Shown: piece by piece, positions 33,650-40,986 of the stretch
How the letters are laid out: every line of letters begins with the position of its first letter
Position numbering within the stretch: the stretch's first letter is position 1
Assembly (NCBI RefSeq): GCF_002854065.1
Contig: NZ_CP024147.1
Strand: one strand, 5' to 3'
Source: Escherichia coli
GTDB lineage: Bacteria > Pseudomonadota > Gammaproteobacteria > Enterobacterales > Enterobacteriaceae
DNA length: 64,000 nucleotides
Translations under genes and position numbers: made by a program
Notes under the pieces: model-generated
What the model was told of the DNA's origin: nothing
Databases searched by the model: none
Seen by the model: only the letters and a program-made list of their open reading frames with translations

Positions 33650-33679
33650 AGTATGACGAATACTTAAAATCGTCATACT
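33650..33679 (+). promoter_or_regulatory. NikR operator in the nikA promoter
   Basis: GTATGA-N16-TCATAC dyad ~40 nt upstream of nikA ATG; a possible FNR half-site (TTGATccagAACAG) lies just upstream. Confidence 0.8.
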
Positions 33680-36234: not shown

Positions 36235-39038
<2,804 letters not shown>

Positions 39039-39067
39039 GTTATTTCTGAAACGAGGAAAGAAAAGAT

Positions 39068-39104
39068 ATTAACTGAACTTAATTTATAAAATTAAGTTCA
39101 GTTG
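39068..39104. terminator. Perfect 13-bp inverted repeat between convergent nikR and hicB-like gene
   Basis: aactgaacttaat-N7-attaagttcagtt; T-rich flank on the minus-strand side. Confidence 0.5.
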
Positions 39105-39157
39105 CATAGATAGATCCTGTAAAGGCAGATATTCTGCGTAATGTACGCCGCTAAAAT

Positions 39158-39517
39158 TTATAAATGATTCAAACGCTCATTCAGTGTTTCAATAATATAG
39201 GTATTAACAGAGACTTGTTGCTGCGCAGCCGCATTATTAAGGCGTTCACTCAGCGATTCTGGATAGCGTAACGTAAAGGTCTTAATCTTTTCTGTACGCG
39301 CATACGGCTCAATACCCGCAGCTTTACAATCCTCAAGATACTCTCGCAGAGAAAGTTCCCCTTCTTTTTGCAGCCCCTGAATGCTGTCAGAGACAAAATC
39401 ACAATAACCTGACAAGCCCAGGAATTTGCCACGAAATGCATTCAGTTCTGGCACGTAAGTGATAACAGCAGGTTGCCCGGCAATCTCCATAGAGTTTGGC
39501 GTCTTCAGTTTGATCAT
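39158..39517 (-). CDS. HicB-family antitoxin (HicB-like N-domain + C-terminal ribbon-helix-helix)
   Basis: 119 aa; central FRGKFLGLSGYCDFVSDSIQGL...EPYARTEKIKTFTLRYPESL and C-terminal LSERLNNAAAQQQVSVNTYIIETLNERL fit the HicB pattern; overlaps toxin gene by 4 nt. Confidence 0.65.
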   Translation of the reverse strand: MIKLKTPNSMEIAGQPAVITYVPELNAFRGKFLGLSGYCDFVSDSIQGLQKEGELSLREYLEDCKAAGIEPYARTEKIKTFTLRYPESLSERLNNAAAQQQVSVNTYIIETLNERLNHL

Positions 39518-39789
39518 GGTTTTACCCCTATACTTAGTAACCAGTCACGCACGCTTTCTACAGCGCCTTTGTCGGTATCTGGCGACGGATGAGGCCGATG
39601 GAAACACGCAACGCTCATATTTAGTATGAACTTACAACGCGAACCTCTTCCTTCCTTAATTTCTCCGCCTAATGCTTTAACCAGTGACTCTATATCAGAC
39701 CACTTGATCCCTTGAGGAACAGGAGATTTAAATATTTGATCCAATGTATTTTTTTGTTTCTTCCGTAAAGCCTGTACCTTGGTTCTCAT
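39514..39789 (-). CDS. HicA-family mRNA-interferase toxin (YcfA-like)
   Basis: 91 aa; C-terminal ...GSRCKFILNMSVACFHRPHP...VESVRDWLLSIGV resembles HicA (KGSHxxF...P.HP...I...LG); N-terminal extension means the real start may be internal. Confidence 0.6.
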   Translation of the reverse strand: MRTKVQALRKKQKNTLDQIFKSPVPQGIKWSDIESLVKALGGEIKEGRGSRCKFILNMSVACFHRPHPSPDTDKGAVESVRDWLLSIGVKP

Positions 39790-39797
39790 GGCATGTC

Positions 39798-39851
39798 CTT
39801 ATGACTTCACTTTATGACATCAATAGTATGACATCACAGTATGAAGTCAAG
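39798..39851 (-). promoter_or_regulatory. Putative hicAB promoter/operator: four tandem ~13-bp repeats
   Basis: tatgacttca / tatgacatca / tatgacatca / tatgaagtca at ~13-bp periodicity in the 72-bp gap between yhhJ stop and hicA start. Confidence 0.4.
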
Positions 39852-39861
39852 TTTCCCTTCC

Positions 39862-40986
39862 TCACGCCATTGTCCCAATCGTCTTCCTGAATCGCAGCAG
39901 TGCGATGGTGAAAAACGCGCCGCCAATTGCCATCAGCGTCAGGAACTGCGGCCAGACGATTTCGAATCCGGCACCCCGGTAGAGAATGGCCTGCGCGAGG
40001 CTAACAAAGTGTGTCGTCGGCATGGTCAGCATAATGTCCTGCACCATCTGCGGCATACTTTCGCGCGGCGTGGAGCCACCGGAAAGCATTTGCAGCGGCA
40101 GCAGCACCAGAATCACCAGCAGCCCCAGTTGCGGCATTGAACGCGCTATCGTCCCCATAAAAATGCCGATTGACGTGGTGGCAAACAGACTGAGCGCCAC
40201 GCCCAGCATAAACAGCGGGATCGAGCCTTCAATCGGTACGCCCAGCACGCCTTTCACCATCAGCACCAGCGATAATCCCGATACCACCAGCACCACCAGC
40301 CCCATCGACCAGACCTTAGCCATCATGATCTCAAACGGCGTTATCGGCATCACCAGTAAATGTTCCACCGTGCCGTGTTCACGCTCGCGGATCAGCGCCG
40401 ATCCGGTCAATACAATCGCCAGCATGGTAATGTTGTTGATGATTGCCATCACCCCGCCAAACCACGCGGGATCAAGGTTCGGGTTAAAGCGCATCCGGGT
40501 TTCCAGCGATACCAACGGTTCGCTGTTATCGCGGTAGCGCGCGACAAAGCTGTTCACTTCACCGTTGATAATATTCTGGATATACCCGTTGCCGGTAAAT
40601 GCCTGGCTCATGCGCGTGGCATCGACGTTCACCTGAATATCTGGCTGGCGTCCAGCGAGGACATCACGCTGAAAATTAGGCGGAATATTTATCGCGAAGG
40701 TATAGCGTCCGGCGTCCAGTCCGGCATCCATCTCATCGGCGGTGATCATCTCCGGTGGCAAAAACCACGGGCGATAGAAGCTGTTAACGATCCGATTCGA
40801 TAACTGCGATTGATCCATATCGGCAATGGCGATCGGTGCCAGGTTCAACGATCCTGGCGTAACGGTCGCTGACGAATACACCGACACCGTAAACGAGAAG
40901 ACAATCAATGTCAGCATCGCTTTATCACCGAGTAGACTGCGCAACTCTTTGATACCCAGATTAAAAATATTGCGTAAATGGCGCAT
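39862..40986 (-). CDS. yhhJ: ABC-2 type transporter permease YhhJ
   Basis: ORF 39862..41070 trimmed to [30 protein letters not shown]...; start overlaps rbbA stop. Confidence 0.85.
   Translation of the reverse strand: MRHLRNIFNLGIKELRSLLGDKAMLTLIVFSFTVSVYSSATVTPGSLNLAPIAIADMDQSQLSNRIVNSFYRPWFLPPEMITADEMDAGLDAGRYTFAINIPPNFQRDVLAGRQPDIQVNVDATRMSQAFTGNGYIQNIINGEVNSFVARYRDNSEPLVSLETRMRFNPNLDPAWFGGVMAIINNITMLAIVLTGSALIREREHGTVEHLLVMPITPFEIMMAKVWSMGLVVLVVSGLSLVLMVKGVLGVPIEGSIPLFMLGVALSLFATTSIGIFMGTIARSMPQLGLLVILVLLPLQMLSGGSTPRESMPQMVQDIMLTMPTTHFVSLAQAILYRGAGFEIVWPQFLTLMAIGGAFFTIALLRFRKTIGTMA

Follow-up and report, generated by a model that had tools for sequence, protein, structure and literature searches.

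The 64,000-nt stretch of Escherichia coli DNA that we analysed (hereafter, the window) carries nikD-nikE-nikR on the plus strand, followed by three minus-strand open reading frames (hicB, hicA, and yhhJ) and then by rbbA. The hicA gene (39514..39789, minus strand), recognised from its open reading frame, Pfam, and the RefSeq annotation of identical loci, encodes a 91-aa protein of the HicA toxin family (PF07927 HicA_toxin, E 2.3e-9, 37.7 bits against a cut-off of 27, residues 30-80). It overlaps by 4 nt (39514-39517) with hicB (39158..39517, minus strand), whose 119-aa product matches Pfam PF05534 (56.8 bits against a cut-off of 21) and is the presumed binder of the repeats described below. 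RefSeq names the products of identical loci HicA-family toxin and HicB-family antitoxin; some UniRef entries carry them as "Hexulose-6-phosphate synthase" (HicA) and "DNA repair protein" (HicB), which are evidently propagated misannotations. NCBIfam held no model matching either protein, and a search of the PDB with the HicA sequence gave no match. The HicA subfamily represented in the window (39514-39789) and at loci L010-L089 is atypical, with a length of 84-92 aa, a basic N-terminal extension (LRKKQKNTL...), and a conserved GSR...FHRPHPSPDTDKGAV motif in place of the usual GSH. Downstream of hicB, a terminator scan located an AT-rich 15-pair hairpin with a T-run (39071..39103, minus strand) between the convergent nikR and hicB. 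This is likely the terminator of the hicAB operon and is probably bidirectional.

A phmmer search of the PDB with the HicB sequence returned nothing significant, the best match being Arc (E 0.27). The C-terminus of the protein (residues 76-116) gave two Pfam matches, Arc (E 0.0077; 16.5 bits against a cut-off of 20.4) and CopG_antitoxin (E 0.016), both of them sub-threshold, and the phmmer alignment with Arc spans HicB residues 76-114. We also built an AlphaFold2 model of the HicB monomer from a 47-sequence alignment (pLDDT 89.8). The model has strands at residues 8-12, 15-22, 27-32, and 40-43, a helix at 46-67, and then a linker that leads to an extended segment followed by helices at 87-99 and 104-117. 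The C-terminal β-strand is unformed in the monomer; the β-ribbon of ribbon-helix-helix proteins forms only in the dimer. When the model was compared to the PDB with Foldseek, the top matches were all HicB structures: B. pseudomallei HicB (6g26_B, E 3.2e-3, probability 1.00), Y. pestis HicB3 (4p7d_A, E 3.7e-2, probability 0.99), Y. pestis HicB3 in complex with HicA3 (4p78_A, E 4.2e-2, probability 1.00), and E. coli HicB (6u0i and 6hpb, E 8e-2 to 3e-1, probability 0.82-0.96). The E-values are modest (from 3e-3) because the two HicB domains are oriented differently, and the relation to known HicB structures came from this fold search alone, not from the sequence search. The C-terminal part matched Arc (1b28, E 1.0, probability 0.96) with a TM score of 0.69 and an rmsd of 2.5 Å over 44 columns. 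The model thus has a partial RNase-H-like HicB fold at its N-terminus and, going by the sub-threshold Pfam matches together with the monomer model, a predicted Arc-like ribbon-helix-helix domain at its C-terminus, in keeping with the suggestion of an earlier note on this DNA that a ribbon-helix-helix antitoxin is encoded downstream of the repeats. With the HicA match, the HicB fold, and the modelled C-terminal domain, the locus is classed as a HicAB type II toxin-antitoxin system of Gerdes class 4 (hicA-hicB order, ribbon-helix-helix HicB).

The 72-bp gap between yhhJ and hicA (39790-39861) is bounded by the yhhJ stop codon (39862-39864, minus strand) and the hicA start codon (39787-39789, minus strand) and reads, 5' to 3' on the hicA strand, cTTGACTTCAtactgTGATGTCAtactatTGATGTCAtaaagTGAAGTCAtaAGGAcatgccATG. 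The earlier note had described four tandem 10-bp repeats spaced ~13 bp apart in a 72-bp gap upstream of hicA, and the four copies are real: on the plus strand they read tatgacttca (39800-39809), tatgacatca (39813-39822), tatgacatca (39827-39836), and tatgaagtca (39840-39849), successive starts being 13, 14, and 13 bp apart. As had been claimed, the cores of the two outermost copies (TGACTTCA and TGAAGTCA) are reverse complements of each other. The proposed consensus, TATGAC[A/T]TCA, fits three of the four copies but not the fourth, TATGAAGTCA, which the note had itself listed correctly. The 10-bp unit also needs revision, since an 8-bp near-palindrome, TGAnnTCA, recurring with a period of 13-14 bp, is a better description of the functional unit; in the strain studied here, each of these boxes carries TA directly after it. 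Tandem Repeats Finder gave the array a period of 13, 3.4 copies, and a score of 53, and a repeat finder recognised in it both a family of direct repeats and an overall inverted symmetry of 21 nt.

A chance origin of the four repeats is excluded on several counts. A pattern search of the 64-kb window with TATGAMNTCA returned four matches where 0.76 were expected, and all four (beginning at 39800, 39813, 39827, and 39840) are in the yhhJ-hicA gap. A motif-free test, in which the highest copy number of any word of the form xxxNNxxx was recorded over 200,000 shuffles of the 72-nt gap, reached four copies in 20 of the 200,000, and in the window four copies were found at the yhhJ-hicA gap only. Finally, the window has two copies of the paired element TGANNTCA-N5-TGANNTCA against an expectation of 0.10, and both are in this gap.

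A promoter scan of the hicA strand identified a sigma-70-like promoter, TTGACT-16 nt-TACTAT, which is a consensus match only (9 of 12 positions). Its predicted -35 (TTGACT, 39845..39850, minus strand) and -10 (TACTAT, 39823..39828, minus strand) hexamers would place the transcription start near 39816 on the minus strand, and a Shine-Dalgarno sequence, AGGA (39796..39799, minus strand), can be read from the sequence 6 nt before the hicA ATG. The boxes cover this promoter from end to end. On the hicA strand, box 1 (TGACTTCA, 39842..39849) is the distal one and overlaps the -35, box 2 (TGATGTCA, 39829..39836) occupies the -35/-10 spacer, box 3 (TGATGTCA, 39815..39822) directly follows the -10 and lies over the expected transcription start, and box 4 (TGAAGTCA, 39802..39809) is in the 5' leader, where it ends 2 nt from the Shine-Dalgarno sequence. 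The same overlap of boxes with the -35, spacer, predicted start, and leader was found in ~40 homologous promoters. No Rfam match (E up to 1) was obtained in 39000-40000, and a structured RNA in the gap or leader was rejected as an explanation.

To place the array in a wider context, HicB homologs were collected from plasmids by tblastn and from one genome per species (80 loci). A tblastn search showed that phages hold HicB homologs too; the box comparison covers the plasmid and genome loci. In a set of 47 distinct Enterobacterales loci with HicB proteins at least 45-50% identical, TGAnnTCA reached a density of 17.3 per kb over the 165 nt preceding hicA versus 0.33 per kb elsewhere (~52-fold enrichment), and 34 of the 47 loci had three or four exact boxes. 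Of 92 distances between adjacent boxes in this set, 51 were 13 bp and a further 25 were 26-27 bp. Two variants were the most frequent among the 134 exact boxes, TGACTTCA (n=56) and TGACGTCA (n=40), with TGAAGTCA, TGACATCA, TGATATCA, TGATGTCA, and TGAGTTCA accounting for 3-9 boxes each. Across 89 fetched loci, the 21-bp element TGANNTCA-N5-TGANNTCA was found upstream of hicA only, or of hicB where hicA is deleted. The boxes accompany hicAB across genera, on plasmids, and in unrelated genomic contexts. They also outlast the toxin gene: in Buttiauxella gaviniae (L032 1079-1200), hicA is almost wholly deleted (~5 codons left), and the promoter with its four boxes stands directly upstream of an intact hicB, making a solo antitoxin with its putative operator.

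When the homologous promoters were aligned, the usual layout was two pairs of boxes in 13-bp register flanking the -10. In most loci, A2 of the distal pair (A1 + A2) forms, with the preceding T, the TTGAC of the -35; a stretch of ~18 nt then leads from A2 to B1 and ends in a -10-like hexamer; and the proximal pair (B1 + B2) is followed by the Shine-Dalgarno sequence and the ATG. The TA of the -10-like hexamer just upstream of B1 played no part in the anchoring, yet its two bases are conserved at 70% and 92% among 37 distinct family promoters, and this conservation beside B1 provides independent support for the promoter. In terms of this plan, boxes 1, 3, and 4 of E. coli occupy positions A2, B1, and B2, and box 2 is extra relative to most other genera. 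The E. coli array therefore differs from the family plan in having an additional box in the spacer, which gives a contiguous run of four, and in having no box at the most distal position, since that is where the island ends.

More distant HicB proteins (~40-46% identity; Geobacter, Methylococcales, Acetobacteraceae, and others) have, instead of TGAnnTCA boxes, two palindromes with a GTAC core (GGTACT, GGTACC, or AGTACT), again 13 bp apart from core to core, that sit between a TTGACA -35 and the -10, ~250-300 nt upstream of hicB (L056-L089, L008-L009). The 13-bp register is thus kept when the box sequence switches from the TGACGTCA type to the GGTACC type. In the alignment of HicB with Arc, T80, T82, and R84 of HicB fall at the positions of Arc Q9, N11, and R13, which are the base-contacting residues of the Arc β-strand. 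R84 is invariant in 47 HicB sequences, and the triplet as a whole follows the class of box: TGAnnTCA boxes lie upstream at 40 of 43 distinct loci with the triplet x-T-R, while GTAC cores 13 bp apart are present at 22 of 24 loci with K/R-N-R and TGAnnTCA boxes at none of them. A few distant loci have GATAC-type inverted repeats instead, and these go with rarer triplets. The box sequence therefore appears to covary with the residues predicted to read DNA, which fits HicB as the reader of the boxes. Since the two main specificity classes correspond to two clades, few independent changes lie behind this covariation.

Within E. coli, the hicAB cassette was present in 2070 of 5426 complete genomes (~38%), always between nikR and yhhJ. 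The spot is variable (window 39040-39864), other E. coli strains having rhsB-yhhH-ISEc1 there. Two alleles of the promoter are common. The four-box allele was found in ~1258 genomes, O157:H7 among them, and a three-box allele, shorter by exactly one 14-bp unit, in ~787. Strain E6 and Escherichia sp. E1V33 lack this unit, which contains one TGATGTCA box (box 2). In E. coli E6 (L001 2160-2330), the three boxes are followed by ATG-TAA, i.e., a stop at hicA codon 2, with the HicB protein unchanged; PGAP still annotates a 76-aa "HicA" at this nonsense locus by starting from a CTG. The codon-2 nonsense allele occurs in 793 genomes, approximately equal to the three-box count (787), so that the three-box allele appears to go with a dead hicA, judging from the matching counts rather than genome by genome. 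Escherichia sp. E1V33 has three boxes and an intact hicA. A different lesion is seen in E. coli UID2309220033 (L002 1960-2241), where HicA is truncated at its C-terminus, ending ...RDW and lacking LLSIGVKP, and all four boxes are intact; the distance from the truncated hicA to hicB is ~20 nt. Nonsense or truncating changes in hicA, with HicB intact, have therefore occurred in several E. coli lineages, which is the pattern that a harmful toxin gene would be expected to show, although as evidence of toxicity it is indirect. In K. aerogenes, the hicAB promoter shows the 13/14/13 layout and its second box (TGCTATCA) is degenerate, which suggests four ancestral positions in the clade and an origin of the three-box form by deletion. 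The K. aerogenes hicAB also adjoins nikR, with a magnesium-transporter gene on its other flank.

These alleles bear on the possibility that the repeats were left behind by replication slippage or duplication at an island edge and are ordinary promoter DNA with no specific protein partner. Since homology to strains without hicAB resumes at ~39864, the array lies within ~14 bp of the island boundary, and a difference of exactly one 14-bp unit between alleles is what slippage might produce. However, conservation of the TGA/TCA arms extends to loci whose HicB is as little as 45% identical, in contrast to the variable spacers between boxes, and the register persists where the box sequence itself differs. 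Conservation of the boxes across genera means that slippage alone cannot explain them, and we regard this explanation as very improbable.

A slightly smaller chance can be given to the proposal that the boxes are sites for another host factor, NikR or CRP, which would put hicAB under nickel or catabolite control in place of autoregulation. The nikR gene, which encodes a ribbon-helix-helix regulator, is ~750 bp from the array, and the NikR half-site GTATGA occurs twice on the plus strand (39826-39831 and 39839-39844). The array also holds TGTGA, a CRP half-site, and other hicAB promoters are reported to have CRP-type sites (PMC11594946). However, the full CRP dyad is absent from the array, and the NikR dyad, GTATGA-N16-TCATAC, has no match with up to two mismatches overlapping 39798-39851, so binding of the array by NikR was rejected. 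Moreover, the unit that is conserved in other genera is TGAnnTCA rather than GTATGA, and the boxes accompany hicAB on plasmids and in genomes that have no nikR nearby. A perfect NikR dyad does exist elsewhere in the window, at 33651-33678, presumably in the nikA promoter. The idea that the repeats are arm-type end sites for recombination or transposition of a mobile cassette that brought hicAB between nikR and yhhJ is scarcely credible: the site is indeed variable and the repeats abut the island junction, but the cassette has no integrase or transposase, its other end (near 39040-39157) has no matching repeat, for which reason we rejected the idea, and the boxes always lie between the promoter and hicA, whatever the flanking DNA.

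We therefore return to the reading in which the four repeats are the operator boxes of the hicAB toxin-antitoxin operon and would be bound by HicB, to which we assign a probability of roughly 85% on the strength of the sequence comparisons. This autoregulated-operator reading is well supported, because in the comparative evidence every prediction that could be computed holds. The proposal in the earlier note of an autoregulated toxin-antitoxin promoter is likewise borne out as far as sequence can take it: the boxes lie over a sigma-70-like promoter, travel with hicAB, covary with HicB, and are retained after hicA deletion. Its description of the boxes as operator half-sites for the antitoxin holds in part. 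An operator array is supported by the enrichment, the 13-bp register, and the covariation, but the term half-site is not, since the box is itself a near-palindrome; a single box would more likely serve as the complete site of one ribbon-helix-helix dimer.

A plausible mechanism would run as follows. Each box would be read by one ribbon-helix-helix dimer, made from the C-terminal domains of two HicB chains, whose β-ribbon would enter the major groove at the box. HicB multimers or HicA-HicB complexes assembled on the array would then exclude RNA polymerase, which would be blocked at the -35, the spacer, the start site, and the leader, and the operon would repress itself. By analogy with HicAB systems that have been studied, an excess of free HicA would probably loosen HicB from the DNA and so lead to derepression. 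At the hicAB locus described here, we infer the binding itself, its stoichiometry and cooperativity, the repression, and the effect of HicA.

Autorepression through promoter binding is known for HicB antitoxins with a ribbon-helix-helix domain from Y. pestis, B. pseudomallei, and S. meliloti (PMC11594946; PMC6327479; 10.1101/2023.12.08.570793). According to a review, Y. pestis HicB3 recognises two 15-bp inverted repeats (BS1 and BS2) on either side of the promoter, of which the repeat over the -10 dominates (PMC11594946). The Y. pestis HicA3-HicB3 system resembles ours in its gene order (hicA, then hicB), in having repeated operators that flank or overlap the -35 and -10 of one single promoter upstream of hicA, and in repression by the antitoxin (PMC11594946), and HicB3 (4p7d, 4p78) is among the best structural matches to our HicB model. 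It differs in having two 15-bp inverted repeats rather than 8-bp near-palindromes in 13-bp register and a hicA3-hicB3 gap of 174 bp rather than a 4-nt overlap; in addition, HicB3 has no sequence similarity to the HicB studied here that was detectable by phmmer against the PDB. The HicB of B. pseudomallei (6g26, 6g1n), the best structural match (Foldseek probability 1.00), binds as a ribbon-helix-helix tetramer to one palindrome that extends over the -10, and excess HicA releases it (PMC11594946; PMC6327479; 10.1101/2023.12.08.570793). Its reported operator is a single palindromic region, in contrast to four boxes extending from the -35 into the leader, and the identity between the proteins is ~10%. 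The ribbon-helix-helix domain of S. meliloti HicB binds a promoter fragment (PMC11594946; PMC6327479; 10.1101/2023.12.08.570793).

The HicAB system of E. coli K-12 (hicO, P1, P2) belongs to the same species and superfamily, and its HicB represses via an inverted repeat. However, that HicB has a helix-turn-helix domain (Gerdes class 3) and the operon has two promoters, whereas the locus described here is a separate accessory cassette of class 4. Gonococcal HicB is also unlike the present case in that its footprinted 14-bp site bears no resemblance to the TGAnnTCA boxes. Outside the HicAB family, phage P22 Arc is the best match in both sequence and structure for the HicB C-terminus, and two Arc dimers occupy a 21-bp operator, the length of one pair of boxes here (8 + 5 + 8). 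The half-sites of Arc share one face of the helix, at a distance of 11 bp, whereas a centre-to-centre spacing of 13 bp would put neighbouring boxes ~85 degrees apart around the helix and not on the same face. MetJ, another ribbon-helix-helix protein, reads tandem arrays of two to five copies of an 8-bp palindrome, AGACGTCT, which shares a GACGTC core with the family consensus TGACGTCA; this likeness should be taken as a lead only. The met boxes are contiguous, with an 8-bp period, and MetJ binding requires S-adenosylmethionine. A met-box array of the MetJ type was rejected here, since the period is 13-14 bp rather than a contiguous 8 bp, and the presumed binding protein is the antitoxin of a toxin-antitoxin system.

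The 13-bp register may reflect the geometry of the HicB oligomer. A stronger version, in which the oligomer acts as a rigid "ruler" that fixes the 13-bp register of the 8-bp palindromes, sets successive ribbon-helix-helix dimers ~85 degrees apart around the helix, and wraps or distorts the promoter, is put forward here only tentatively and is, in our estimation, rather unlikely; it would amount to an operator grammar undescribed for HicAB. If it were true, E. coli would carry an unusual, contiguous four-box version, and the three-box allele would be one that appears to accompany toxin loss.

Autoregulated toxin-antitoxin operators are textbook knowledge, the genes at this locus are already annotated as HicA and HicB, and the general picture of toxin-antitoxin autoregulation is unchanged by the hicAB boxes. 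The literature we searched contained no description of an operator for the hicAB locus between nikR and yhhJ, of the TGAnnTCA/13-bp rule, or of the two E. coli alleles. For an uncharacterised cassette carried by ~38% of complete E. coli genomes, including O157:H7, we thus predict an operator, a promoter, and a family-wide rule, namely TGAnnTCA boxes in a 13-bp register with a specificity that tracks two β-strand residues. The predicted site rule is a ready design for footprinting and reporter work, and E. coli itself offers a natural comparison of operator number with toxin activity, four boxes versus three with an apparently dead toxin gene.

The boxes may also be of practical use in annotation. 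The ATGACTTCA box reads Met-Thr-Ser, so that longest-ORF calls extend hicA into its own putative operator, producing N-termini such as MTSLFDF...MTSIFEV (L012, L020, L023, L028, L029, L035, L036). The annotated start codon of hicA in this family is therefore probably often wrong, and the boxes provide a simple sequence signature for locating the true one.
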